From Rhodothermales bacterium (lineage in GTDB: Bacteria; Bacteroidota; Rhodothermia; Rhodothermales; Bin80), in NCBI GenBank assembly GCA_965203305.1, contig OZ241874.1, positions 2,865,687-2,929,686 on the forward strand: a stretch of 64,000 nucleotides of DNA, given 5' to 3'. The notes under the pieces were generated by a model. The model searched no databases. It was given only the letters and a program-made list of their open reading frames with translations, and was not told the origin of the DNA. Made by a program: the position numbers and the translations under genes. Positions 6,051 to 41,728 of the stretch are shown in pieces. Numbering within the stretch: position 1 is the stretch's first letter; each line of letters begins with the position of its first letter.

Positions 6051-6499
6051 TTCAGAATCAAATAGAAGTGAACTTGAGGGGCACGAACCCGAACTGGAGA
6101 AAAATCAAGAATCCGGCATAGTACCTGATACTGAACTTGATTTTGATCAGTCATTTTCCGGGTAGCCCAAATAGGCTTGAGAAGTCTGAGAGAAGAGTAT
6201 CCATCCAATCGTCATTCAGCGGTCCTGTGCCGCCAGCGTCCGAATTAGTCAAATATGAGAATGTCTACCCGGGAGCTGCTGACCGTCTCTTTTCCCTAGC
6301 TGAAAATTCTCAGAGAATACAAGAAAAAGCACTTGATGGACAAATTGGCAATGACAGACGAAAAATAATCTCCTCTACGCTCGTAGCTGTCTGTTTTCCA
6401 TTAGTCATGGCGATACCTGCCTGTCTGGCCATCATATATGACCCAGCTTGGTTGTCAATACTGCTTGGAACAGTGGGCACATCAGGAGGTCTCCTAACT

Positions 6500-7082
6500 A
6501 GTGTCTGTCCGAAAATTTACAGCAACCCCAAATACGGGGGATTCCAGAGGCATTTTTCCACCACAGCGTCATGTATGGCGCGATTCAGATGCTCGTTGCT
6601 ATGAGAGATTCGGGGAAATCTTGCACGAAGATTTCGTGTTTATGGCTGAAGTTACCCCCTAGTTTTTTTGGGGGCTTCAAAAACCGTAATAATTAAGGTT
6701 ATTTGATCCAAATATATAAGAAATAACGGAAAAATGTCGAATTATCCTTAATAATTTAGGGAGTTACATGGGCAGGCATCTGAAAAATCATGCCGTAGAA
6801 AGTACGATTTTTTTAGAGAAAAACTTCAATTATTAAGTATTTTCTCTCATATTATCTTAAAAAGTATCAGAATTTGAACCCTTTTCCTTAAATCTTAGGG
6901 TTGAAATATTTTCAAATACGGGGTAACTTCAGTTATGGACGCCGTTCGGGGATTTGATGCTCCAATCCGCCAAAGGGCTTCCATCTTCGTCAGGAAAAAT
7001 ACCAAAAAATATCTCCAAAAACCCCTCATACGCTCTCGAAACGGCATATATTGGCGATATCCTGAATTTTCTGACGGCCACT
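6500..7082. mobile_element. MITE (copy A1, 583 bp) with termini matching the IS at 34848-36718, carrying a nested second MITE
   Basis: Left end AGTGTCTGTCCGAAAATTT. The reverse complement of the right end is AGTGGCCGTCAGAAAATTC (16/19). Flanked by a 4-bp direct repeat AACT (6496-6499 and 7083-7086). No ORF. The internal sequence is collinear with copy A2 (8808-9086, opposite orientation) except for the 287-bp insert. Confidence 0.75.
6646..6932. mobile_element. Second, unrelated AT-rich MITE (287 bp) nested inside MITE A1
   Basis: Perfect 13-bp terminal inverted repeats: CTGAAGTTACCCC (6646-6658) and GGGGTAACTTCAG (6920-6932). Flanked by the direct repeat TTATGG (6640-6645 and 6933-6938). 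Copy A2 has the uninterrupted site (GTGTTTATAG|ATACTATTCGGGG). Confidence 0.65.
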
Positions 7083-7157
7083 AACTATTCTCCTGCGAGG
7101 TTTGCTCCGAAAAAGAGACAAGAAGAACACATAACTTGTCTTGCGTTTCAGCTATCT

Positions 7158-7175
7158 AGTGTTTGTCCGAAAATT
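7158..7175 (+). repeat. Solo terminal repeat of the same IS/MITE family
   Basis: AGTGTTTGTCCGAAAATT matches the family terminus AGTGTCTGTCCGAAAATT at 17/18 positions. I found no partner end downstream. Confidence 0.5.
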
Positions 7176-7300
7176 ATATTCCGCAATATTGCCTGCGGAG
7201 AAAGCTCAAGCCCTTCCCTGTGGAGTATGATACGGAAGCTGGACATCTCCCGGAAATCTGCTCCCGGCACGAGAGGAAAGTAAAAACAACACTGTAGATC

Positions 7301-8695
7301 TCAAGTTGATACGGCGGTCATCCCTTCCATCAGAGCATCCAGAGACTTGCAAAGCGTATCCACCAGGAATTCAACCTCCTCCTCATTGATGACCAATGGC
7401 GGCGAAATTCCCAGCGTATCTCCCATTGCCCTCAGAATAAGTCCACGGCGAATTGCCTTCGCGCGAAGCTTTGCTCCCATCTGCAAGGAAGCCGGGAACG
7501 GGCTGTACGGTTTCCCCTTGGCAGCGGCCAGCTCCACCCCTGCCACCATGCCCGTACCACGAACCTCTCCCACCAGCGGATGCGGTGCCACACGCTGTCG
7601 CAAACTTTCCTGAAGCTGTGTCCCAATCGTATGGATATGATCAAGAATGTTATCCTGCTCATAGATGTTCAAACATTCCAGTGCAACGGCCGCAGATACA
7701 GGATGCCCTGAATAAGTCAGTCCGTGGGCAAAGACACCAACCTCATCACTCCCATCCTCCAGCACATCATATACCTTCTGGTTGACCATGACCGCCGAAA
7801 TCGGCAGATAGGAAGCTGAAAGTGCCTTGGCGGTGATCAGCATGTCCGGCTCCATCCCCACCGTCTGGCTCCCCCACATATTCCCCGTTCTGCCAAATCC
7901 GCAAATGACCTCATCCGCAACAAGAAGTACGTCATGCTTTCTCAGTACATCCTGGATTGCTGCAAAGTACCCTTCAGGCGGGAGGATGACACCCCCGACT
8001 CCCATGACCGGCTCTGCAATGAATGCGGCAACCGTTTCGGGGCCCTCTTCCAAGATTTGCGCATCCAGTTCTGCGGCCAGACGGACACTGAACTCTCTCT
8101 CTGACTCGCCCTCATGTCCGTACCGGAGATAATGCGGCTTGGATGTATGAAGAAAACCCTGAAGTGGAAGGTCAAACATCTTGTGATTGCGGGGCAGTCC
8201 CGTAAGACTTGCCGATGCAATCAGTGATCCGTGATACGCATCCTGGCGGGCAATAATTTTCTTTTTCTGCGTACGACCAAGAACATTGTTATAAAACCAG
8301 ATCATCTTGACAGCCGAATCCACTGCCTCTGAACCGGAGTTTGCAAAGAACACCTTGGCCATGGGTACAGGTGCAATCTCCAGCAGCTTTTTTGCCAGCG
8401 CAATCCCAACTGGATGGCTGGCCGCCGCAAACATGTGCATGTAGGGCAGTTTTTGCAACTGCCTGTGTGCTGCATCCACCAGTCGCTGTTCACTAAACCC
8501 GAGCGATGCGGACCAAAGTCCGGCTACTCCCTCAAGAAAACGGTTACCGTGTTCATCATAGACCCAGACTCCCTCCCCGTGTGTAATGATCATGGGACGG
8601 TACGTCCCAAGAGCCGTAAAAGGATGCAGGACAGAGGCACGGTCCTCCAGTGAAAGTTCCGTAGGATTCAGCTCAGACTCAGCCATCTTTGTCAT
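7301..8695 (-). CDS. Class-III PLP-dependent aminotransferase (omega-aminotransferase family)
   Basis: Full-length match to the class-III pattern: FANSGSEAVDSAVK, AAFIAEPVMGVGGVI, LLVADEVICGFGRTGNMWG, ITAKALSASYLPISAV (PLP lysine region). Start placed at MTKMAESE (8695). Confidence 0.85.
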   Translation of the reverse strand: MTKMAESELNPTELSLEDRASVLHPFTALGTYRPMIITHGEGVWVYDEHGNRFLEGVAGLWSASLGFSEQRLVDAAHRQLQKLPYMHMFAAASHPVGIALAKKLLEIAPVPMAKVFFANSGSEAVDSAVKMIWFYNNVLGRTQKKKIIARQDAYHGSLIASASLTGLPRNHKMFDLPLQGFLHTSKPHYLRYGHEGESEREFSVRLAAELDAQILEEGPETVAAFIAEPVMGVGGVILPPEGYFAAIQDVLRKHDVLLVADEVICGFGRTGNMWGSQTVGMEPDMLITAKALSASYLPISAVMVNQKVYDVLEDGSDEVGVFAHGLTYSGHPVSAAVALECLNIYEQDNILDHIHTIGTQLQESLRQRVAPHPLVGEVRGTGMVAGVELAAAKGKPYSPFPASLQMGAKLRAKAIRRGLILRAMGDTLGISPPLVINEEEVEFLVDTLCKSLDALMEGMTAVST

Positions 8696-8774
8696 GAGTG
8701 TCTGTGGTTGAACTCCTGGACCATCTCCAGAACATCTGGCGCAGGACTCCTGCGCTGCCAGCCAAGCAAACAAA

Positions 8775-8802
8775 GGGGCTCATATGCGTGAGTGTCCATG
8801 AG
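8775..8802. repeat. Solo copy of the tnpB-element terminal repeat
   Basis: GGGGCTCATATGCGTGAGTGTCCATGAG matches the reverse complement of the 40374-40401 end of tnpB element 2 (GGGGCTCATATACGTGAGGGCCTATGAG) at 24/28 positions. No tnpB follows it. MITE A2 starts 5 bp later. Confidence 0.45.
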
Positions 8803-8807
8803 TATAT

Positions 8808-9086
8808 AATGTCTGTCCGAAAATTCAGAATATCGCCAATATATGCCGTTTAGAGGGCGTATGAGGGGTTTTTGAAAATATTTTTCCTGACAAGGATGAA
8901 GGCTTTGGGGTGGATTTGGAGGTAAAATCCCCGAATAGTATCTATAAACACGCAATCTCCGTGCAAGATTCCCCGAATCTCTCATAGCGAACGAACACCA
9001 GAATCACTCCATACATGATGCTGTGGGGAAAAATCCCCCTGGAATCCCCCGTATTTAGGGTTGCCGTGAATTTTCGGACAGACACT
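8808..9086. mobile_element. MITE (copy A2, 279 bp), same family as 6500-7082
   Basis: The ends AATGTCTGTCCGAAAATTC and the reverse complement AGTGTCTGTCCGAAAATTC match at 18/19 positions. Flanking 4-mers are ATAT and ATAC (3/4). The internal sequence aligns with copy A1 in inverted orientation. No ORF. Confidence 0.75.
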
Positions 9087-9171
9087 ATACGAGCCCCTAC
9101 ACCGTTTTTTACTTCTGTGGAGCGGTTTTCTGCTTCGTTCATCAAAATGCATCAGATCTATTTTCGTAATT

Positions 9172-9405: not shown

Positions 9406-10092
9406 TCACACCGCAAGGCGTTTTTGTTCCACTGCTCCTTTGATCATTTGAAGGAAGTGATCAACCCCCAGCTTTGTTTCCAGTTTACGGAAATTCTCAT
9501 CTGACACCTCGGGCAAGTCCTCCTTCCTGCACTGCCGCAACACTTTCCCCTTGTGCTGGTCCAGCATAAATATTGCCAGACACTGAGCATCTGGAATATG
9601 GGGCTGTCCATGATCTTCCACCAGCTTTGCATACAGCTCAATCGCATGATTGTCTACTGCTTCCATCTTGCCAACTGCTCCGCCCTTCTTCAAATAGGGA
9701 TTAGGATGAAGACGGAGCAAGATATGTCCAAACGCGATATTCTCGTTCCGTAAATTCGCTGTTTCGCCCAGCTGTTGCTCAAAGTAGTTGTTCTTGTTCT
9801 GCCGGTAGTTTGTCATCACAAATTTGATGCTGACAACCCCCAGCATTGTGTCACCTCGGGAAATGGCGACATCCACACTCTTTGTATAATAATGCCCCTT
9901 TGCTTTCTTCTCTTCCCCGCCCTCTGTCGAAAGCCCCTGTATTGTGTAGGCATTGCCAAGGACCTGCTTAAGCTCTCTGATCACCCACCCGCGGAGAATC
10001 TTGAGCTTTTTGTTATACCGTGGATGTGTCTCCACATACGCCTGGTACGCTTCCTGTACCGCTCGCAGGAATCTGTCTTGCAGGGGAGTCAT
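9406..10092 (-). CDS. Putative type II restriction endonuclease (PD-(D/E)XK-like)
   Basis: Its ATG overlaps the methylase stop (ATGA at 10089-10092), which indicates translational coupling with the methylase. It has a candidate PD-(D/E)XK core (SVDVAISRGDTMLGVVSIKF) but no other recognisable family motif, so the function is inferred mainly from context. Confidence 0.5.
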   Translation of the reverse strand: MTPLQDRFLRAVQEAYQAYVETHPRYNKKLKILRGWVIRELKQVLGNAYTIQGLSTEGGEEKKAKGHYYTKSVDVAISRGDTMLGVVSIKFVMTNYRQNKNNYFEQQLGETANLRNENIAFGHILLRLHPNPYLKKGGAVGKMEAVDNHAIELYAKLVEDHGQPHIPDAQCLAIFMLDQHKGKVLRQCRKEDLPEVSDENFRKLETKLGVDHFLQMIKGAVEQKRLAV

Positions 10093-11584
10093 TGTTCGAG
10101 GGTATATTTCTGAGAAGGGAGGGGGAAATTCTGAATGTAGCGCTTGGCGTAAGAAAACCATCCGCCCTGAAACGGTTGTGCGTAGGTGCGGATGTGTTCC
10201 TCCATTTCAGGACTGTTCAGGGCCGCTACGAGCATCTCCATGCAGTGTCCGTCCCTGGGCTTGATACAATAGCCGGAATAGAACAGCGTATCGGGATCCT
10301 TGCACATCTGAAAGTTCGGGGAGGGATTCATCCCCGAGGTCAGAATCTTCTGTCCGAATCCAGTGCGGATCCCCACTCCTCGGCCATATCCATACCACTT
10401 GGATGGATCCGTTGCTCCCTTGTCCCTTTGGAGGAGCTTTTCCTTATGTTCAAGGAGCCACTGGTATGCCTTGGGAAATCGCTGAGCAAGGGAGGATTCC
10501 GGGAGCAGCTTCCCCGCCTTGTCATAGGGATAGATAATCACGCGATTGACACGGTCCTTCCCATCCTTCATTACCGAGGCCTTAAGTATCTTTCGCACCG
10601 CACTTCGTTCAATCACGAATTCTCTGCCTGCTGCCTTCACGATAATCTCTTTCTGCTTCCACATTACCGCCTCAAGAATAAACACGCGGTCCGCCAATGT
10701 CTGAATCCCGACATGGATGTCGGCAATATCGGACAGACGGGGGGCTGATATTTCCTGTGCAGCATCCCGTGCACATACGGCCCACTGCGGGGATGAGCAG
10801 GCTAGCATCCCAGCCTCCTCAAATCCAGCTTCCCCCCATTGATATACGCGGGGGACGATATCCTTTTTCCCCTTGGCAATCCGGGTAAGACATGTGTATG
10901 TGCTGTATCCGGGAAAGACCTGATGGTCGCGGAAGTCGTGCAGGGATACAATACCATGGTGCTGGGCAAGGTCCTGCCTCATCGGGAGGCCGGCATCATT
11001 TCGCAGCCACCCGCTCGGGGAAATGTAAAGCAGTTCTCCCTGCTGCTTCAGCAGGCGGAGTCCCAGCTCAAAAAAATAATGTACAGATCACTTGCCCCAC
11101 GGAAATATGCCCATCCCCCCTGCTTCACTTGCTCCCGCCGGTGTTTCTCCATGTGCTGAATACGAACATATGGCGGATTCCCGACAACACAGTCACATAT
11201 ACCTTCGTCCTGCTCCCACAGGGAAAGGGCATCGCCTTCCAGTATCCGCCAGGAACATGTGGGGAATGTGCCCCCGAGATACTTCTCGGCGACAAGGGAA
11301 AGCCTCTTGCGACATTCGGAGACAGCACGCGTATCCACATCGTATCCCGTCAGGTTCTGCAGAGTAGACAGATACAGTTTCTTTTGGTATAGGGATGCCC
11401 GCGAGGCTCTCTGGCACACCTCACTGGCCAAAGGCACCAGAAAATCGCCGGTACCGCAGGCAGGATCACAGATCCTGACATTCCTGAGAGAGCCTGCAAA
11501 CACGGGGGCAAGGAGTTGCTCCACGATCCAGCCTGGGGTATAGACCCGCCCGAAGTACTTCGTTGTATCGGTCGCGTGCTCCAT
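10089..11584 (-). pseudogene. N6-adenine DNA methyltransferase (TaqI/Eco57I-like, gamma class), split by a frameshift in an A7/T7 homopolymer
   Basis: The N-terminal frame (11584-11048) has motif I DPACGTGDFL and motif IV NPPYV. It stops 7 codons after the T7 run. Adding one T at 11070-11076 reads ..DLYIIFFELGLRLLKQQGELLYISPSGWLRNDAG.., which is the expected continuation, into the 10982-10089 frame (TaqI_C-like target-recognition domain). Confidence 0.8.
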
Positions 11585-11599
11585 GGATCCTTGCTATTT

Positions 11600-11760
11600 G
11601 GGGCTTATATACCTGAGTGCCCATAGACTATTTGTCTTGGTCCCAGTCTCGTTGACGGGTCATCAGGGAACCCAACGGTTCACCCCTCGCACATCCAGAA
11701 GCCCCAACCCCGGAGGCCAGTATGTTCGCGGCAGCGTTGATGTCCGCGTGTTCCGCATGT
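11600..11760 (-). ncRNA. Putative omega-RNA (reRNA) scaffold region of tnpB element 1
   Basis: In characterised TnpB systems the guide RNA comes from the tnpB 3' end plus the right element end. Here nucleotide blocks are shared with element 2, and one of them is translated in a different frame in the two copies (see findings). The boundaries are guesses. Confidence 0.35.
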
Positions 11761-12902
11761 CCACAGGACATACACTTGAATTTGCGCAGGGAAGCGCGAT
11801 TGCCCGCGTCCCTGTGTCCGCACCGGCTACAGTTCTGGCTCGTGTACGCGGCCACCACAGAGAGAACGAGAACGCACTTGTACCCCAGCATCTGCACCAG
11901 CTGTCCCGGCGCACCTTCCAGCAGAACCCGGTTCATCCCCGCTTTCGCTTTGACATTCTTGCCCGGATTCTCTGTCGTCCCACGGGCCAAGGCGGTCATG
12001 CTTTTCACCTTCAGGTTCTCCACCACCACTACAGGGGCTGCCTTCGCGATTTTCGCACTGTTCTGGTGATTGCGGTTATGACTGAAGTTTGCCAGATAGG
12101 TGCTGCACTTCTGGATCTTGCCCTGTGTCTTCTTCGCCCGGTTCGACATCTTTTTCCGACCGGCCGCTTTCTGCCGGGCAATCTGCTTCGCCAGCTTCCG
12201 CTCATACCTGCATTTGCGCAATCGCACCCGCTTGTCCGCCTCACTCTCCAGCACTTCAGGGTCCCTGCCGTCACTGCAGGCCACGGCGATCATGCCACTG
12301 GCGTTCCGGTCAATTCCCGCCACCACGCCGGTATCTTCTATGAGCACCTCGTCTATCTCGTATGTGATGGTGGCCCACCACTTCCCGCCTTTCCTGTATA
12401 CCGTGATGTCTTTCGTGATTCCCTCCGGGTACGGGTTGCCCCCTTTCCTGCGGAGGATTACCGTGCACATCTCCTTTCCCTTGATCGTCAGCTGGTTCCC
12501 CCTCAACGTGTACCCCGTTTTGTCCGGGATGGTGAAGGACGGCTTGGTCCGGTCTCTGCTGTGAAAGCGGGGAGGCTCCGAAAGCCCCTTGTCGTACCTG
12601 CCCCATGCGTCTGCCTGGTACTTGAATACATACCGTACCGTGGCATACTGGTAGTGTTTCAGCCACGGATACTTTTTCTTCAGGATCCGCATGTACTCGC
12701 TCCCGGTACTGAAGAAGGTGGTGGACGGTCCGTTCTCCCCTCGCTCCCGTGCCTCCTGTTTTCGCTGGAGGGTAATGGCGAGACCTTCGTTCCACATCTT
12801 CCTCCAGACCCCTGCCAGCCGCGCCAGTTTCCGGGCTTTGGTGCCCGATCCCGGCAGGATGCGGTAGGTGATCCTACGGTAGGTCTTGCCTGCCTTTGCC
12901 AT
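11628..12902 (-). CDS. tnpB: TnpB (IS200/IS605-family OrfB, RNA-guided RuvC endonuclease family)
   Basis: RuvC-I GIDRN, RuvC-II VVVENLKVKSM, zinc finger CSRCGH..CMSCGH, and RuvC-III HADINAAANI are all present. 424 aa, apparently intact. Confidence 0.9.
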   Translation of the reverse strand: MAKAGKTYRRITYRILPGSGTKARKLARLAGVWRKMWNEGLAITLQRKQEARERGENGPSTTFFSTGSEYMRILKKKYPWLKHYQYATVRYVFKYQADAWGRYDKGLSEPPRFHSRDRTKPSFTIPDKTGYTLRGNQLTIKGKEMCTVILRRKGGNPYPEGITKDITVYRKGGKWWATITYEIDEVLIEDTGVVAGIDRNASGMIAVACSDGRDPEVLESEADKRVRLRKCRYERKLAKQIARQKAAGRKKMSNRAKKTQGKIQKCSTYLANFSHNRNHQNSAKIAKAAPVVVVENLKVKSMTALARGTTENPGKNVKAKAGMNRVLLEGAPGQLVQMLGYKCVLVLSVVAAYTSQNCSRCGHRDAGNRASLRKFKCMSCGHAEHADINAAANILASGVGASGCARGEPLGSLMTRQRDWDQDK

Positions 12903-13118
12903 GGTGTCTGTCAGTGTTCTCTTCCAACCTGCGGGACATAAAATGGTTCACTTCTCATGGGCCCTTAGGTATATAAGCCCCTGCTATTTCCTGGAACTTA
13001 TAAAGGAAACTCTACCGCGAGAATTCATGCGGCAGTCTTTCTCTCTGTCAATGGAACGTATACTCGGCCCATGTTGACATGGACATTCCGATATACAAGT
13101 CCCCAACAAAATCCGGAC

Positions 13119-34616: not shown

Positions 34617-34847
34617 TCATTTCTTCGCCTTCTTGTTCTGAATAACGATTCTTGCAAACTTCTCTTTCCCATTTACGCGGAATCTGCTCTGCTTGCCTGT
34701 TAATTGCGTGATGAGTGGTCTATCCATTCCGACAATCTCAAACTGTTCTGGATTGTACTTGTCCAGAAAAGTAATTGGCACCCCCATTGCTCCATCCCAA
34801 TCCATGGGGATATCCTTCGTTTTACTCACCTCAATGGCATCGTAGTT
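34617..34847 (-). pseudogene. 3' fragment of an EcoRI-family adenine methyltransferase gene, separated from its 5' part by an IS
   Basis: Encodes ..NYDAIEVSKTKDIPMDWDGAMGVPITFLDKYNPEQFEIVG..IVIQNKKAKK-stop. It continues the 36719-37466 frame exactly once the IS and one AGTT copy are removed (..PKYDN|YDAIEV..). Confidence 0.75.
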
Positions 34848-36718
34848 AGTGTCTGTCCGAAAACACGGGATATATGGGTTTGCGCTGGTTCCTGTGCGCA
34901 TTTTTGGGGATATTTCTTTTCTAAAGAAGTCCACTTTTTGGGGGATATGATCGTATAAGCCCTGAAACCCGTTCATCTTTTTCCTTTTGCTGAGATGAGA
35001 AAAGTCATTGAACCTCAACTTGAGATTGGATGGAAGCCTCTGGAAGAGATCACGCTGCCCCTTCACAATCGGGATGATTTCTATCTGTGCATGACGGCCA
35101 TTTTGCATCTTTACCATGATGTTTTGCTGCGTGCGCGTCTGTTTTCCCGGTTGGCGGAGATTTTTCCTGCGGGGGTTCGGACGGATCGGGGGCGTCCGGG
35201 GATGTTTGCATGGCGCATCTTCGTGCTGGGGGTGCTGAAGCAGGTTCTTCGGTGCGACTATCAGAGACTGGCCATGCTGGCCACGGAAGTGCAGGTTTTG
35301 CGACAGATTCTGTTCCATTCCGAATTTGACGATACGGTCTACTGTCCGCAGACCTTGCAGGACAATCTTTCTCTTCTGACCTCCGAGATTCTGGCAGAAT
35401 TCATTCAAATGGTGGCAGAGTGCGGACAGAAGGTGGCGGGAAAGCAGGAGGGGGAGGTGTTGCAGGGGCGGTGCGATTCCAAGGTGTGCAAGACCAATGT
35501 GGAGTTTCCCTCTGATCTGCGCCTTCTTCGGGATTCTGTCTGCGGGGGACTTCGGGAATGTGCCAAAACCGCGGATGCGCTGGATGTACCGGGCTGGCAG
35601 CAGATACAGCATCTGATGAAGACGGTAGAGAAGGCCCACAAGCCGGTATGTATCGCCAGGAAATACAAATCCCGTCCGGGCAAGGTTCGCTATTTCTTGC
35701 GTCTGTGTCGGAAGCGGGGCAGAAAAGTAGTGGACTTTCTGCGGAACCTGCATGACAGGAAAACAGAGCTGGAGCGGAAACAGGCAACGGGTTCGCTCAC
35801 CAAGGCGGAAGAGAAGATGCTGAACACCGTGCTCCGTGCGATGCAGCGCATCTATTCTTTTCTGGGGTATATGGCGGTATTGCACGATCAGGTGCGTCGT
35901 CGGGTCTTGCATGGAGAGAAGATTCCGCATCGTGAGAAGATATTTTCGATCACCAAGCCGTTTACCCGCTGGATCGTGAAAGGGAAAGAAGGGGTGCTGT
36001 GCGAGTTGGGGGTTCCGGTGGCGATTATAGAAGATCAGTACCAGTTTATTCTGGGGCATGAGATTCTGTGGACGGGGACGGACAAGGATGTGGCGGTCTC
36101 GCTCACGGGGAGCGTGCAGGAGCAGTTTCCTTCCCTGCGTGAATGTTCGTATGATCGGGGTTTTTACAGTCCGGAGGTTCGGGAGAAGTTGGATGAGATG
36201 CTGGATGTGAATGCGATGCCGAAGAAAGGGAGGATGACGAAGGAAGAGCAGGAGCGGCAAAGCGATCCTGCCTTCCAGCGCGCAAGGAAACGCCATCCGG
36301 GCGTGGAATCCGCGCTGAACAACCTGGATCATCGGGGCTGGAATCTGGTGCGGGAAACAAGCCGGGAAGGCTTTGCCCGAGTCGTAGCGACCGCTATTCT
36401 GGCCGCCAATGTCCACCGACTGGGGAGGCTGCTCCGGGAACAGGAGATCATCAAGAAAGCGAAACGACGACGAAAGCTCGCCGCATAGGCGTGCATCCCC
36501 CCTTTCTTGCGGATTGACGAGGTGCCAAATTCAGGTGAATGCCAGAGGTACGTCCGATTCCTGCGAAGGAGGCACAAATGTACACCAATTCCCCCAAAAT
36601 CCGCCCTCAAAACGGGAAGAATCTCCCCACTCCAGTCCATTTTGCGTCCAATATGACAGGAGATCTGCCCCGCCCCTGTTGCCAGTTCCCGAAAATCGGC
36701 AATTTTCGGATGGACACT
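34848..36718 (+). mobile_element. IS element (1871 bp), IS5/IS1182-superfamily-like, the candidate autonomous partner of the MITEs at 6500 and 8808
   Basis: Ends are AGTGTCTGTCCGAAAA and, as reverse complement, AGTGTCCATCCGAAAA (14/16). The 4-bp direct repeat AGTT sits at 34844-34847 and 36719-36722. One transposase ORF. Confidence 0.8.
34995..36488 (+). CDS. DDE transposase (IS5/IS1182-like)
   Basis: 497 aa. The N-terminal region is like the InsH/DUF772 module (..FAWRIFVLGVLKQVLRCDYQRLAMLATEVQVLRQIL..). The first catalytic-Asp block CDSKVCKTNVEFPSDLRLL resembles the D-S-T...I.YPTD..LL signature of IS5-type enzymes. Family assignment is by eye only. Confidence 0.7.
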   Translation: MRKVIEPQLEIGWKPLEEITLPLHNRDDFYLCMTAILHLYHDVLLRARLFSRLAEIFPAGVRTDRGRPGMFAWRIFVLGVLKQVLRCDYQRLAMLATEVQVLRQILFHSEFDDTVYCPQTLQDNLSLLTSEILAEFIQMVAECGQKVAGKQEGEVLQGRCDSKVCKTNVEFPSDLRLLRDSVCGGLRECAKTADALDVPGWQQIQHLMKTVEKAHKPVCIARKYKSRPGKVRYFLRLCRKRGRKVVDFLRNLHDRKTELERKQATGSLTKAEEKMLNTVLRAMQRIYSFLGYMAVLHDQVRRRVLHGEKIPHREKIFSITKPFTRWIVKGKEGVLCELGVPVAIIEDQYQFILGHEILWTGTDKDVAVSLTGSVQEQFPSLRECSYDRGFYSPEVREKLDEMLDVNAMPKKGRMTKEEQERQSDPAFQRARKRHPGVESALNNLDHRGWNLVRETSREGFARVVATAILAANVHRLGRLLREQEIIKKAKRRRKLAA

Positions 36719-37466
36719 AGTTATCATATTTCGGGTATTCTTCCGAAGAGTACTCCCTGTACAGTATCAGCTCCTCGTTACGCTTTCTATGCTCCAGATT
36801 GGTAAACCAATGAACACCTGACACACGAATCATTCCTTCTTTTCTGTCCGAGGCGGTGGCATAGTCTTCATACCTGCTCATAAAATGCGCCGCTCCGCCC
36901 TGAAACCCATAACCCAACCATATCCTGTTCGCCTTGATGAGAGGGAAAATCTCCTTGTACGTAATCGCATTTTGATGGCCGATGATCAGAAACTTCTTCT
37001 CATACTCCATCAACTGGGCCACATACTCCCGAAATAGTGAAAACGGAGGGTTAGTGACCACGATATCTGCCTGTTTCAGTAGCTCAATACATTCCGGGCT
37101 TCGGAAATCTCCATCTCCCTGCAAGCGGTGAACTTCAATTTCATGGGGATCCGGCATCCGGTTTCCGTCCTTGTCCCCTGTGTACTCCAGCCAGATTGCC
37201 TGCTCGGCATCATGCCGCGAAAACAGGTCCCTCTGCTGATTCTTGTAGCAGGTGGTGATCAGCCGTTTCAGCCCCAAATGCTCAAAGTTGAGGGAAAAGT
37301 ATTTGAAAAAGTTGCTCACCCGTGGATCATCACAGTTGCAGTAGATCACCTTCCCCCGGAAATGCTCCTTGTAGTGCCGTAATTCCTTCTCAATATCAAT
37401 GAGCTGTGTATAGAACTCATCCTTTGCAGCTCTCCTCGCTACATGCAGGTTTCTATTTTCTGACAT
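36719..37466 (-). pseudogene. 5' part of the IS-interrupted EcoRI-family adenine methyltransferase gene
   Basis: DEFYTQ..IEKEL..Y...F.GKVIYCNCDDPRVSNFFKYF and catalytic NPPFSLFREY. The frame runs straight into the IS terminus at 36718. Confidence 0.75.
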
Positions 37467-37571
37467 CAGGAGGAGCGGTATGACCATTCAGGATACAATC
37501 CATCATTCGAATTTGTGACTTCTGGTCAGAGAGCATGCTGATGGATGAACAGATTGCAGATGGAAACTGGG

Positions 37572-38491: not shown

Positions 38492-39013
38492 TCAATGTAG
38501 ATCCTTCTTGGGGCAACGCCAGACTGGCACACTTGAGCAAGGTTCGCCAAACATGACTTTGCGAGCTACTTTCTGCAGTTCTCTCATTGCCTTCGCATAG
38601 GCACTTTCGGGTACAATCCCTGAACCGCAGCCTTTCACAACAACCGTTCTGTCAGAAAATCTCTCCCAATCCTCTTGTTCCATTGCCATTACAAACTGCT
38701 CCCGAATCACATCGCCTCTCCGTCCCATTGTAATACTCCTGGCCATATCCAGATGCGAAGTGATGAGCATGTACGCCCACATAGGAACCAGTGCATCTGT
38801 ACTGCAAAAAAGCGCGACATGCACATCACTGAACCCCTGCCAGTCATGATCAGCTACCTGTAACCGAAACGGCTTCTCCCTCAACAGGATTCCATTCTCA
38901 AGAAACGGAGCTACGTCCAGCTCCCTGATCTCATGCCCTTCCCAGAGCAGTTCCAGATCATAGACTTCAATCCCACTCCGGGCCACACGATTCACGATTT
39001 CCATCTGACTCAT
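38492..39013 (-). CDS. DUF2480-family protein
   Basis: IVNRVA.S.IEVYDLE..., HDWQ.F.D.HVALFCSTDALVPMWAYML, and VVVKGC......P.SAY......LQ.VA..VMFGEPCSSVP match the conserved Bacteroidota DUF2480 pattern, which is commonly found beside Fe-S or cysteine desulfurase genes. Confidence 0.7.
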   Translation of the reverse strand: MSQMEIVNRVARSGIEVYDLELLWEGHEIRELDVAPFLENGILLREKPFRLQVADHDWQGFSDVHVALFCSTDALVPMWAYMLITSHLDMARSITMGRRGDVIREQFVMAMEQEDWERFSDRTVVVKGCGSGIVPESAYAKAMRELQKVARKVMFGEPCSSVPVWRCPKKDLH

Positions 39014-39026
39014 ACAGCTTTATCAT

Positions 39027-39190
39027 GGGGCTTATATACGTGAGGGCCCATATTAAGATGGAACCGGTACACGTACACTTGACGGGTCATCGGGGTCCCC
39101 ACCGGGAACGCCCCTCGCACGTCCAGATGCCCCATGCCCTGGGGCCCGCAAGATGTTCGCGGCCGCATTCAGATCCGCGTGTTCTTCGTA
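39027..39190 (-). ncRNA. Putative omega-RNA scaffold region of tnpB element 2
   Basis: Same reasoning as for 11600-11760. The boundaries are guesses. Confidence 0.3.
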
Positions 39191-40321
39191 ACCACAGCCC
39201 AGGCACACAAACTTGCGCAATGTGACCCGGCTGTTCCTGTCTACATGTCCGCACAGACTGCAGGTCTGGCTGGTGTACGCTGCCACCACATAGAGAACGA
39301 GAACGCACTTGTACCCCAGCATCTGTACCAGCTGGGCGGGGGCTCCTTCCAGCAAAACCCGGTTCAGCCCCGTTTTCTGCCGGACATTCGTGCCCGGATT
39401 CTCTATCGTTCCCCCGGCAGATCCGGTCATTCCCTTGATGGACAGCTTCTCCACTTTTACCGTGGATGCCTTCTCCGCAATCCGGGCACTGTTCTGATGG
39501 TTCCGGTTGTGCCGGCAGTTCGCCTCTTTTCTGCTGAGCCTGGCAATCTGCTGTTGCGTCTTCTTTGCCCGGTTCGACGTCTCTGTGCGTCCGTCCTTCT
39601 CCTGCCGGTCCAGTTGCCCGGCCAGCTTCCGCTGCTTGCGCTTTTTCCTGGTCTCATAGACCGGGTTGGTGGGATGATCCAGCACCTCATCCGGCGTGTC
39701 ATCCGAGTAGGCCACCGCGATCATGCCACTGGTGTTCCGGTCAATCCCCGCCGTGACTCCATTGTCCACCCGCACCCGCTCGTCAATCTCATAGGTCACC
39801 GAGACATACCAGTTCTTCCCCTGCTTGTAGACGCGGGCCTGTTTCGGGACTCCATCGGGATACGGATTCTCACCCCGTCGACGGAGCCGCACCTTCCCGA
39901 CTCTGGGGATGTGAATCTTCCCGGCCGCAATCCTGACGTGATCGGGAATTGTGAAGGAGGGAGTCGTTTTATGCTTGGCCTTAAACCGGGGCTTGCCGGC
40001 CGGGCTATCAAAGGAGTTCTTGAAAGCCTGGGACAGATGTTTTAGCGTATGGCGAACACAGGCACAGGAGTATTCCTGCAGCCACGCATACTCTGGATCG
40101 TTGCGCAACTGCGTAAACTCGCTGGAGAGATCCTCGTACCTTATGGACGGAGTCGGGGTGCCGTTCGCCTGCGACTCCGCATATTCTTTCTGGTTCCTGG
40201 CAAGGAAGAAATTCCAGACGAAGCGGCAGGCCCCGCACATCCCATGGAGCTGGTGTTCCTGCTCCTCATCGGGAAGCATACGGTAGGTGATGCCGCGATA
40301 GGTCTTGCCTGCCTTTGCCAT
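39053..40321 (-). CDS. tnpB: TnpB (second, diverged copy)
   Basis: GIDRN, VKVEKLSIKGM, CSLCGH..CLGCGY, and HADLNAAANI are all present. It shares the N-terminus MAKAGKTYR.ITYR.LP and the block LNRVLLEGAP.QLVQMLGYKCVLVL.VVAAYTSQ.CS.CGH with copy 1, but is clearly diverged elsewhere. Confidence 0.9.
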   Translation of the reverse strand: MAKAGKTYRGITYRMLPDEEQEHQLHGMCGACRFVWNFFLARNQKEYAESQANGTPTPSIRYEDLSSEFTQLRNDPEYAWLQEYSCACVRHTLKHLSQAFKNSFDSPAGKPRFKAKHKTTPSFTIPDHVRIAAGKIHIPRVGKVRLRRRGENPYPDGVPKQARVYKQGKNWYVSVTYEIDERVRVDNGVTAGIDRNTSGMIAVAYSDDTPDEVLDHPTNPVYETRKKRKQRKLAGQLDRQEKDGRTETSNRAKKTQQQIARLSRKEANCRHNRNHQNSARIAEKASTVKVEKLSIKGMTGSAGGTIENPGTNVRQKTGLNRVLLEGAPAQLVQMLGYKCVLVLYVVAAYTSQTCSLCGHVDRNSRVTLRKFVCLGCGYEEHADLNAAANILRAPGHGASGRARGVPGGDPDDPSSVRVPVPS

Positions 40322-40374
40322 GGTGACGATGGAATTCCTCTGTCAACCTGCGGGCCCATAAAATGGTTCAGTCC

Positions 40375-41538
40375 TCATAGGCCCTCACGTATATGAGCCC
40401 CTTTATTTTGCAATCCATGTACAGCCCTTCCAAATAATTCAGAAGCTCGAAAAATTTCTTCTTCGGTTGTTGGACGACCGAGGCTAATTCGCAATGTCTG
40501 CCCGGCAATATCTGCCCCGACTCCCATGGCCGAGAGAACCCGACTAGGCATGCGCTGCCCCGATCCACAGGCACTTCCTGTCCCTACTGCCAAAGGCCGA
40601 ATGGACAGCAAAAGTCGCTCCACATTCAAATTCGGGAATGATATGCTGCTCGTCTGCGGAAGTCTCTCGACTTCTCTGCCATGAATTTGAATCTCGGTAT
40701 TCTCCTTCATTATGCTGTGCTCAAATCTGTCACGCAAAGCAGAAAGCCGTATTCCATCCTCCTCACACTCCAGTTTTGCCAGTCGAAAGGCTTCTCCCAT
40801 CCCGACGATGCCTGGCACATTATGGGTACCGCCACGGTGCCCCTGTTCCTGCCCTCCACCGTCTATTAGTGGGGTGTATCGAATGCGTCCTCGAACAAAT
40901 GTTGCACCTACCCCCTTGGGTCCATAGACCTTGTGCGCACAGCAAACCAGAATGTCTACATCTTCAACGGACACCGGCACCTTTCCAATTGCCTGTGTGG
41001 CATCGGTCATCAGTGGAATCCCTCGTCCCCGAACCAGCTCTGCAATCTCCGGGATCGAATTTATCACCCCTGTCTCATTATTCGCCCACATTACGCAAAC
41101 CACGATTGTATCCTCTGTCAGGCTTCGTTCCAGATCGTCAAAACCCAGAAGTCCATTTGCATCAACGGGCAAGTAGGTGACACGCCAGCCGCGCTGCTCC
41201 AGGTGCTTGCACGCGTGGGTAACAGCACTGTGCTCTGTCTGTACGGTTATGATATGCTGCCCCTGACGGCAACGGGATTCCGCCAGCCCCTTGATTGCCG
41301 CATTAATGCCCTCTGTTGCGCCGCTTGTGAATACAATTTCACTGGGGCGGGATGCACCAAGACACTCAGCCACTTCTATGCGTGCTTTCTCAACCGCGGC
41401 ACTTGCTGTCCACCCGTACATATGTGCCTGACTGGATGGATTGCCATAATGCTCTGTGAAATAGGGCAACATCTTTTCCATGACACGGGGATCCACCGGT
41501 GTCGTGGCATTGTAATCCAGATAGATCGTCTCAGCCAT
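40375..41538 (-). CDS. Cysteine desulfurase (NifS/IscS-like, class V aminotransferase), with a 3' end rebuilt by the tnpB element
   Basis: IYLDYNATTPVDPRV, GNPSS.H, FTSGATEGIN, HKVYGPKGVGA (PLP Lys), and GTGSACGSG (catalytic Cys loop). The last 8 codons (GAHIREGL) and the stop are encoded by the element terminus at 40375-40401. Confidence 0.9.
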   Translation of the reverse strand: MAETIYLDYNATTPVDPRVMEKMLPYFTEHYGNPSSQAHMYGWTASAAVEKARIEVAECLGASRPSEIVFTSGATEGINAAIKGLAESRCRQGQHIITVQTEHSAVTHACKHLEQRGWRVTYLPVDANGLLGFDDLERSLTEDTIVVCVMWANNETGVINSIPEIAELVRGRGIPLMTDATQAIGKVPVSVEDVDILVCCAHKVYGPKGVGATFVRGRIRYTPLIDGGGQEQGHRGGTHNVPGIVGMGEAFRLAKLECEEDGIRLSALRDRFEHSIMKENTEIQIHGREVERLPQTSSISFPNLNVERLLLSIRPLAVGTGSACGSGQRMPSRVLSAMGVGADIAGQTLRISLGRPTTEEEIFRASELFGRAVHGLQNKGAHIREGL

Positions 41539-41655: not shown

Positions 41656-41728
41656 GCCGCGTTCGTCTAGGGGTCCAGGACGCCGGCCTCTCACGCTGGT
41701 AACACGGGTTCAAATCCCGTACGCGGTA
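41656..41728 (+). tRNA. tRNA-Glu (anticodon CTC)
   Basis: Folded by hand. Acceptor stem GCCGCGT/ACGCGGT, D arm GTCT-AGGGGTCCA-GGAC, anticodon stem CCGGC/GCTGG with loop CTCTCAC, T arm ACGGG-TTCAAAT-CCCGT, discriminator A. CCA is not encoded. Confidence 0.85.

Follow-up and report, generated by a model that had tools for sequence, protein, structure and literature searches.

A tnpB element with IS1595-type inverted ends between a cysteine desulfurase gene and a DUF2480 gene in a sponge-associated Rhodothermales bacterium

The stretch of DNA analysed here, referred to as the window, comprises 64,000 nt of contig OZ241874.1 from a sponge-associated Rhodothermales bacterium; all coordinates are window positions. 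Its minus strand carries, in this order, a cysteine desulfurase gene (40375-41538), a 1375-bp element (39027-40401) and a DUF2480 gene (38492-39013). The desulfurase is a class V aminotransferase (Aminotran_5, 1.7e-75) with a chimeric C-terminus, and the product of the DUF2480 gene matches PF10652 (2e-55). The element is bounded by 25-bp terminal inverted repeats (TIRs) and contains, on the same strand, a single open reading frame (ORF), tnpB (39053-40321, 422 aa). As a result, 1383 bp now lie between the DUF2480 gene and its upstream partner. A promoter and terminator scan gave no signal beyond chance.

In the orientation of tnpB, the left-end TIR occupies 40377-40401 (minus strand; its reverse complement reads GGGGCTCATATACGTGAGGGCCTAT) and the right-end TIR, downstream of the gene, 39027-39051 (minus strand; GGGGCTTATATACGTGAGGGCCCAT). 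The two pair at 23 of their 25 positions, and the core of the right end is identical to that bounding 60 related elements. The shared family end sequence begins GGGRMTTATATAC (the ends are also written GGGRMTTATATA and GGGGCTTATATAC); the end motif occurs five times in the window, as opposed to zero occurrences in 100 shuffles. Immediately outside the TIRs lie the 8-mers TTTATCAT (39019-39026, beside the right end) and TTTATTTT (40402-40409, beside the left end), which match at 6 of 8 positions. The coordinates and counts given in an earlier note on this DNA all hold on recount. Inward of the left TIR, the subterminal region and the tnpB 5´ leader (40322-40376, minus strand) include an imperfect hairpin (…GAGGGCCTAT…ATGGGCCCGCAGG); this region is conserved in a second window element, called element 1, and in the related loci L094 and L095. 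At the other end, an omega-RNA-like structured region with covariation (39027-39141, minus strand) overlaps the tnpB 3´ end and the right end. The desulfurase frame crosses the left-side 8-mer into the TIR and terminates in ...GLQNKGAHIREGL (...QNKGAHIREGL, then stop), the left end coding for the last eight codons (GAHIREGL) and the stop.

The tnpB product is recognized by domain, profile, alignment and structure matches. It contains the Pfam domains HTH_OrfB_IS605 (PF12323), OrfB_IS605 (PF01385) and Cas12f1-like_TNB (PF07282), that is, the helix-turn-helix/WED-REC part, the split RuvC and the zinc ribbon are all present. The NCBIfam model guided_TnpB (NF040570) scores 239.6 bits with a cutoff of 100, and residues 11-393 match the ISDra2 TnpB structures 8h1j and 8exa (E = 8e-19). 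The RuvC residues D194, E291 and D383, together with the C4 zinc finger (C354, C357, C373, C376), are invariant in an alignment of 32 sequences and all occur in this TnpB; the gene is intact, and its product is presumed to be an active RNA-guided RuvC nuclease. Neither this TnpB nor the closest cluster representative, P0001, had an exact match on record.

The insertion is best seen by comparison with orthologous loci. When the DUF2480 protein was used as a query against species-representative genomes, the best match (80% identity) placed the window in Rhodothermales, and 23 Rhodothermales loci were found in which desulfurase directly abuts DUF2480 (…NKAA-stop, then the start codon). In the closest orthologues the junction reads ...GGACTTTATAACAAAGCTGCATGACTCAGATGGAA (..GLYNKAA, then stop), with the stop TGA overlapping ATG. 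Removal of the element and one 8-mer from the window yields GGATTGCAAAATAAAGCTGTATGAGTCAGATGGAA (..NKAV, then stop), which is codon-for-codon colinear with these orthologues, and the reconstructed empty site is ATAATAAAGCTGTATGAGTC. Because the eight nucleotides at 39019-39026 are extra relative to the orthologous junctions, and absent from all of them, they represent the duplicated target, i.e. one copy of a target site duplication (TSD). The tail GAHIREGL was found in no orthologue among the 23 loci. Thus the uninterrupted junction predicted in the earlier note does exist in relatives, and the last eight desulfurase codons with their stop are, as it proposed, derived from the element.

The age of the insertion can be judged from metagenomes. 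Public runs containing window sequence include sponge metagenomes, and in seven of the runs there are contigs across the element junctions, both junctions being covered in X1, X3, X4 and X6 and one in X5, X8 and X9. No contig in these seven runs joins the flanks directly, as an empty-site allele would. The strain in run X6, with flanks about 2% diverged, carries 39024 C>T and 40408 T>A, and both of its 8-mers read TTTATTAT, a perfect 8/8 TSD. The 6/8 match in the window is explained by this strain: one later substitution occurred in each copy of an originally perfect 8-bp duplication. The suggestion that this is an older insertion of the same kind as element 1 is thereby borne out. Judging from these sequences, the insertion is older than the divergence of the sampled strains, and it looks fixed. 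The same strain corrects one detail of the original reconstruction, which had ..GLQNKAV before the stop. The junction itself stands; the Q, however, stems from a window-specific substitution in the duplicated 8-mer, and the ancestral tail was most likely ..GLHNKAV, then stop, rather than ..QNKAV.

Desulfurase and DUF2480 had also been regarded as a pair coupled through an ATGA overlap. This overlap is present in the window and in the orthologous loci L001, L002, L006 and L016, but it is not universal. The two genes are tightly packed in all relatives, with either a 4-nt overlap or a 6-nt gap. Because an in-frame stop follows the first DUF2480 ATG in L003-L005, because L007-L015 have TTG at that position, and because the Pfam DUF2480 model begins at residue 4, the conserved start of DUF2480 is probably the second ATG, at 39004 (MEIVNRV).

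The element is not alone in its host. Element 1 (11600-12981, minus strand; 11592-12989 with its duplications) has the same architecture, with tnpB at 11628-12902, TIRs at 11600-11624 and 12957-12981, and a perfect TSD, TGCTATTT, at 11592-11599 and 12982-12989. The two TnpB proteins are 52% identical, in keeping with the earlier view that they belong to a family and do not represent a recent duplicate. Despite this divergence, a tnpB stretch of about 60 nt (…CAGATGCTGGGGTACAAGTGCGTTCTCGTTCTCT…; within 39200-39340 and 11790-11930, respectively) is near-identical between the two elements, and it is also the deepest-covered region in metagenomes. On the far side of element 1, window positions 9406-11584 hold ORFs resembling restriction-modification remnants, namely an N6-methylase N-terminal fragment (11048-11584, minus strand), which ends 16 nt from element 1, and ORFs of 297 aa (10089-10982, minus strand) and 251 aa (9406-10161, minus strand).

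A profile-based scan of species-representative genomes yielded at least 569 relatives. The best 80 of them (L111-L190) come nearly all from long-read metagenome-assembled genomes (MAGs) of Rhodothermales, Paracoccaceae, Caldilineaceae, Thermodesulfobacteriota, Dadabacteria, Porisulfidus, Arenicellales and others. Ends could be paired in 60 of these 80 (34-49% TnpB identity), and 33 of the 60 pairs are flanked by perfect 8-bp TSDs, a further 10 by duplications matching at 7 of 8 positions. Most paired TIRs lie 1.25-1.6 kb apart with tnpB alone inside. The closest paralogue available, L095 (92% TnpB identity), has the perfect TSD TTGTTTAT. In distant relatives from Caldilineaceae and Paracoccaceae (38-44% identity), the ends begin GGGGCTTATATAG, GGGACTTATATAC or GGGAATTATATA and are again accompanied by 8-bp TSDs. 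The full 25-nt end pattern, used in a genome scan, picked out 14 Rhodothermales loci, all of them left ends belonging to a third tnpB subfamily (468 aa) or to derivatives of it; none of the 14 contains a transposase.

The family is also numerous. A single 90% protein cluster comprises 212 sequences (P0016, found in a 5.9-Mb genome), and the k-mer depth of the element is 10-170 times that of its flank, a figure that sums all family members in a sample. The best 80 relatives belong nearly all to lineages typical of marine sponges, in at least six phyla, which suggests that the element family has been passed on horizontally among members of the sponge microbiome.

Composite and reduced forms occur as well. 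At L189:529-5232, two inverted tnpB elements surround a Fic/DOC gene together with one further ORF. Their outer ends match at 25 of 25 positions and share the TSD ATTTCAAA; therefore this 4.7-kb composite transposon moved as a single unit. At 8775-8804 and 9090-9097 of the window there is a mini element of about 40 bp, consisting of only two tnpB-type ends (GGGGCTCATATGCGTGAGTGTCCAT… and …CGAGCCCC) and flanked by no matching 8-mers. It is split by a miniature inverted-repeat transposable element (MITE) derived from an ISNCY element, and what had been taken for a solo end of a larger element at 8775 is one end of this pair.

What, then, moves such elements? No transposase ORF is present inside the element, and the tnpB-only copies of the family likewise encode none. 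Inverted ends and an 8-bp duplication rule out transposition of the classical IS200/IS605 kind; they indicate a DDE transposase, in this case one of the IS1595 family. Elements of this family usually generate 8-bp TSDs (PMC8101967), and for ISApl4 the ends GGGGCTGTACTAGA and A/T-rich 8-bp repeats are given in PMC12561309.

The link to IS1595 comes from elements that have the same ends and do encode a transposase. In a 5.9-Mb Rhodothermales genome (L139 and L191), an ORF for a 318-aa IS1595-family transposase (Pfam DDE_Tnp_IS1595, 1e-37, and Zn_ribbon_IS1595; NCBIfam NF033547, 184.9 bits with a cutoff of 75) lies about 120 bp inside the end GGGAGTTATATAGCTGACTGCCCACGCGTT, which is near-identical to the left end of tnpB elements in that genome. 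In L139, the outer ends of a unit with transposase plus tnpB have the common TSD TAACAAAT, so both outer ends were used in one event. This 3.7-kb unit (L139:1556-5273) recurs in L191 and consists of an IS1595-transposase element, a captured methylase fragment of 470 bp and a tnpB element; the tnpB copy of L139 is disrupted. Further, the 2.9-kb element L196 combines an IS1595-family transposase with a methyltransferase-HNH passenger and has the ends GGGAATTATATACGTGAGTAACCC and an 8/8 TSD, TTAAATAT; its ends have the 13-mer TTATATACGTGAG in common with element 39027-40401. Two more IS1595-type elements are L194, with toxin-antitoxin-like passengers and an 8/8 TSD (TAATTTTT), and L193, with a C5-methylase passenger and the ends GGGGATTACATACCTGAGTACCCA. 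Relatives with the same ends carry methyltransferases, a SocA_Panacea protein and other passengers. Measured against the features of the IS1595 family, TIRs are shared and 8-bp TSDs are present (element 1, the X6 strain, 33 of 60 relatives), while an own transposase is missing. As neither element nor window has a transposase ORF of this family, the element is only a non-autonomous derivative and not an autonomous insertion sequence (IS).

The 3´ end of tnpB appears to serve a second purpose. An alignment of the final 115 nt up to the right boundary, taken from 34 diverse members of the family, supports a long-range helix, CTG[C/G]ACG…CGT[G/C]AA (about 39120-39123 with 39081-39084), one pair of which is C-G in 21 of the sequences and G-C in the other 13, without a single break, and an enclosed hairpin, GAGGGGC…(A)CCCCT (39092-39114), whose inner stem is rich in compensatory changes. 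Paired cells amount to 93.7%, compared with 76% in column shuffles and 31-50% with slid partners, and double (compensatory) changes are seen in 9 of 12 pairs. Since the same nucleotides encode the C-terminus of TnpB, a constraint on RNA is the best account of this covariation. The structured region adjoins the right end, as an omega RNA would, and is consistent with a putative omega RNA running into the flank; this identity and the place of the guide are assigned on the model of TnpB and Fanzor systems that have been characterised. A guide beginning at the boundary would read AUGAUAAAGCUGUAUGAGUC, i.e. the duplication followed by the DUF2480 start region. A further pairing, a pseudoknot of the last 6 nt of the right end with GGGAYT about 125 nt upstream, was considered as well. 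It is 85% paired, shows weak covariation and is poorly formed in the element described here, and we do not claim it.

Taken together, we regard it as highly probable that element 39027-40401 is a non-autonomous member of the IS1595 family (DDE, cut-and-paste type) with tnpB as a passenger, that it was moved in trans and that its 3´ part encodes a structured RNA, putatively an omega RNA. Mobilisation in trans by an IS1595-family transposase is what the shared ends and the L139 unit point to. Several observations weigh against this interpretation. Firstly, tblastn detected no IS1595 transposase in the 64-kb window, and among the best 120 transposase matches none came from the two genomes with the closest TnpB paralogues; these searches did not find the partner used in this lineage. 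Secondly, some family members (L094, L098 and L108) have no TSD, presumably as a consequence of recombination between copies. Thirdly, a gathering-threshold Rfam scan of the whole window reported one tRNA only and no omega-RNA family, and a putative RNA run, X18, yielded no RNA of the element. Finally, the two mismatches of the right-side TSD copy would sit in that part of the presumed guide which is proximal to the target-adjacent motif (TAM).

The most probable course of events is the following. An IS1595-family transposase encoded elsewhere would have recognized the 25-bp inverted ends and inserted the element three codons ahead of the desulfurase stop, cutting the two strands of an A/T-rich site (ATAATAAA in tnpB orientation) with a stagger of 8 bp. 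Since then the desulfurase ends in eight codons provided by the left end, and DUF2480 lies 1.38 kb further downstream, behind tnpB and on its strand. A structured RNA, the presumed omega-RNA scaffold, is encoded by the 3´ end of tnpB together with the right end; its guide would be taken from the flank (the duplication and the DUF2480 start region).

One property of the insertion sites does not follow from this scheme. We compared 44 independent sites at which the two 8-mers agree in at least 7 of 8 positions, namely those of element 1, of L095 and of 42 paired loci among L111-L190. Within the duplication the composition is symmetric and rich in A/T (WWWNNWWW). On the tnpB-upstream side, however, the adjoining 5´ base is G in 38 of the 44 sites, whereas the mirror position is C in only 15. 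No conserved motif of 4-5 nt lies next to the left end in these sites; the single G at position -1 is all that is enriched. Element 39027-40401 and L095 have C, not G, at this position, and two complete tnpB-free IS1595 elements (L194 and L196) have T, two being too few for a comparison. The asymmetry is unexpected, since symmetric ends should yield a symmetric target logo, and it is unexplained.

The one-sided G, next to what would be the guide target, has the appearance expected of a TAM. We therefore put forward, as a tentative and rather doubtful extension, that TnpB and its omega RNA are functionally coupled to the DDE transposon. The guide would correspond to the duplication and the right flank, and the G would be the TAM or a part of it. 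The occupied site has CCC at the position of the G, so an unoccupied allele (..G, duplication, flank) would be cut and an occupied one (..CCC, duplication, flank) would be spared. If this were true, the family would be a bacterial counterpart of Fanzor-bearing TIR transposons, and the coupling could explain its exceptional copy numbers and its spread across phyla in sponge microbiomes.

A more radical version of this idea would make TnpB and its guide RNA, and not the transposase, the main cause of persistence and spread: unoccupied alleles would be cut, repair from an occupied copy would restore the element or copy it, and the inverted ends would act mainly as an RNA scaffold. The orientation-specific G (38 of 44 compared with 15 of 44 for the mirror C), the intact catalytic residues of TnpB, the conserved 3´ RNA structure that extends into the right end and the very high copy number (depth of 10-170 times the flank, 212 sequences in one 90% cluster) all speak for it. 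Homing, however, cannot place an element with an 8-bp duplication at a new site unrelated to the old one, and the family occupies 44 different sites; moreover, element 39027-40401 and L095 have C at position -1. We consider this version improbable, and even a homing activity of TnpB would supplement DDE-mediated insertion rather than replace it.

It is less likely still that the ends belong to one of the other DDE families found near members (IS630-like, ISNCY, ISL3, IS4/IS5) and that the transposase of that family is the real partner. An IS630-like helix-turn-helix and DDE_3 gene pair does lie between the left end and tnpB in L158, an ISNCY element is inside L114, DDE_Tnp_1 occurs in L119 and ISL3 adjoins L110; further, the PNAS 2023 survey describes an IS630-associated TnpB branch (PMC10691335). 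The IS630-like unit of L158 is nevertheless a nested insertion: it has separate ends (AGCACGYGGCC), it made a TA duplication, and the sister copies L082 and L083 lack it; its genes were accordingly rejected as an instance of the published 'DDE-6' arrangement. Duplications made by IS630 are TA and not 8 bp long. The window ISNCY element has ends (TAGTGTCTGTCCGAAAA) unrelated to those of the tnpB elements, the ISL3 element of L110 interrupts recA and has other ends, and the two transposases were dismissed as partners for this reason. The other transposases near family members are nested or adjacent insertions with ends of their own.

Some of these neighbours are worth recording in their own right. 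The ISNCY-family IS (34846-36721; transposase 34995-36488, NF033593, 337 bits) interrupts an EcoRI-like adenine methyltransferase, whose N-terminal part lies at 36717-37487 (minus strand) and whose C-terminal part lies upstream of 34846. Two MITE-like derivatives (6499-7177 and 8805-9089) share the ISNCY end sequence and stand in opposite orientation around a class-III aminotransferase gene (7301-8773), a layout like that of a composite transposon. At L110:2126-3409, in a related Rhodothermales MAG, the ISL3-family transposase interrupts recA, and a solo tnpB-type left end follows the recA stop. Near the insertion described here, a tRNA gene (41656-41728, plus strand) is located directly upstream of the desulfurase gene, between it and clpP.

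The least plausible reading, that of a classical IS200/IS605 element of the IS1341 group moved by a Y1 (HUH) TnpA through single-stranded peel-and-paste to the 3´ side of a fixed tetra- or pentanucleotide, can draw on the IS200/IS605 TnpB model NF038281 (164 bits, under its cutoff of 425) and on the imperfect hairpin in the left end, but it hardly survives the 25-bp TIRs and the perfect, sequence-variable 8-bp TSDs at 33 of 60 pairs, given that IS200/IS605 elements have no TIRs and make no target duplication (PMC13565253), the lack of a conserved 4-5-nt motif beside the left end and the absence of tnpA from all of about 100 loci.

A non-autonomous IS1595-type element with a tnpB passenger, the reading we prefer, has partial precedents. 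The usual carriers of tnpB, IS200/IS605 and IS607, have neither inverted ends nor a variable 8-bp duplication, as stated in a 2026 review, which calls TnpB-DDE associations in prokaryotes rare and names ISL2, IS630 and IS1031 (PMC13565253). In their survey, Altae-Tran et al. (PNAS 2023, PMC10691335) distinguish six TnpB branches with DDE transposases ('DDE-1' to 'DDE-6'), with inverted ends and solo copies seemingly mobilised in trans. The family described here resembles these branches in having tnpB inside symmetrical inverted ends with its 3´ end at most 250 bp from the transposon end, and in solo tnpB copies that share ends with transposase-bearing copies, implying mobilisation in trans. 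It differs in the transposase, which is IS630 in the PNAS main text and ISL2, IS630 or IS1031 in the review mentioned above, and here IS1595 with 8-bp duplications. It also differs in being highly proliferated, whereas according to the survey TnpB forms no clusters of more than 30 copies. The main text of the survey makes no mention of IS1595.

From the side of the transposon, IS1595 family members (Siguier et al. 2009, after the citations in PMC8101967 and PMC12561309) likewise have TIRs starting with GG(GG), A/T-rich 8-bp TSDs and passenger genes. The present copy, unlike them, is devoid of a transposase and carries as its passenger an RNA-guided nuclease, together with a putative non-coding RNA that overlaps the right end. 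Elements of the IS1341 group (IS200/IS605; solo copies related to ISDra2 and ISHp608) are similar in having tnpB as sole gene, a size of 1.3-1.5 kb, the same protein architecture and, putatively in the present case, a 3´ structured RNA. They differ by asymmetric hairpin ends, no TIR or TSD and insertion beside a fixed TAM, as opposed to the TIRs and 8-bp TSDs found here. Another parallel is offered by Fanzor1 and Fanzor2* in eukaryotic cut-and-paste TIR transposons (Yoon et al., NAR 2023, PMC10711439), where a TnpB-family nuclease is the sole gene of a non-autonomous transposon with TIRs and TSDs. The element described here, in contrast, is bacterial, its TnpB has the typical size, and its variable TSD would more likely be the first eight nucleotides of the guide than part of the scaffold. 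The general kind of association is thus known. What appears to be new in this variant is the partnership with IS1595, along with the 8-bp duplication, the extreme degree of proliferation and the confinement to genomes of sponge symbionts. The family may correspond to one of the unnamed published DDE branches.

Locally, the event is an ordinary one. The insertion is old and seems to be fixed; it altered how the desulfurase ends at its C-terminus and uncoupled a conserved gene pair. The family as a whole is of moderate interest for research on TnpB and OMEGA systems. TnpB has been thought to be tied almost exclusively to scarless transposons of the HUH or serine-recombinase type, and here is a large and prolific family, in sponge symbionts of at least six phyla, in which tnpB rides on IS1595-type ends. 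It provides a number of compact TnpBs, possibly with an unusually short TAM, and a natural setting in which the contribution of an RNA-guided nuclease to a cut-and-paste transposon can be studied.

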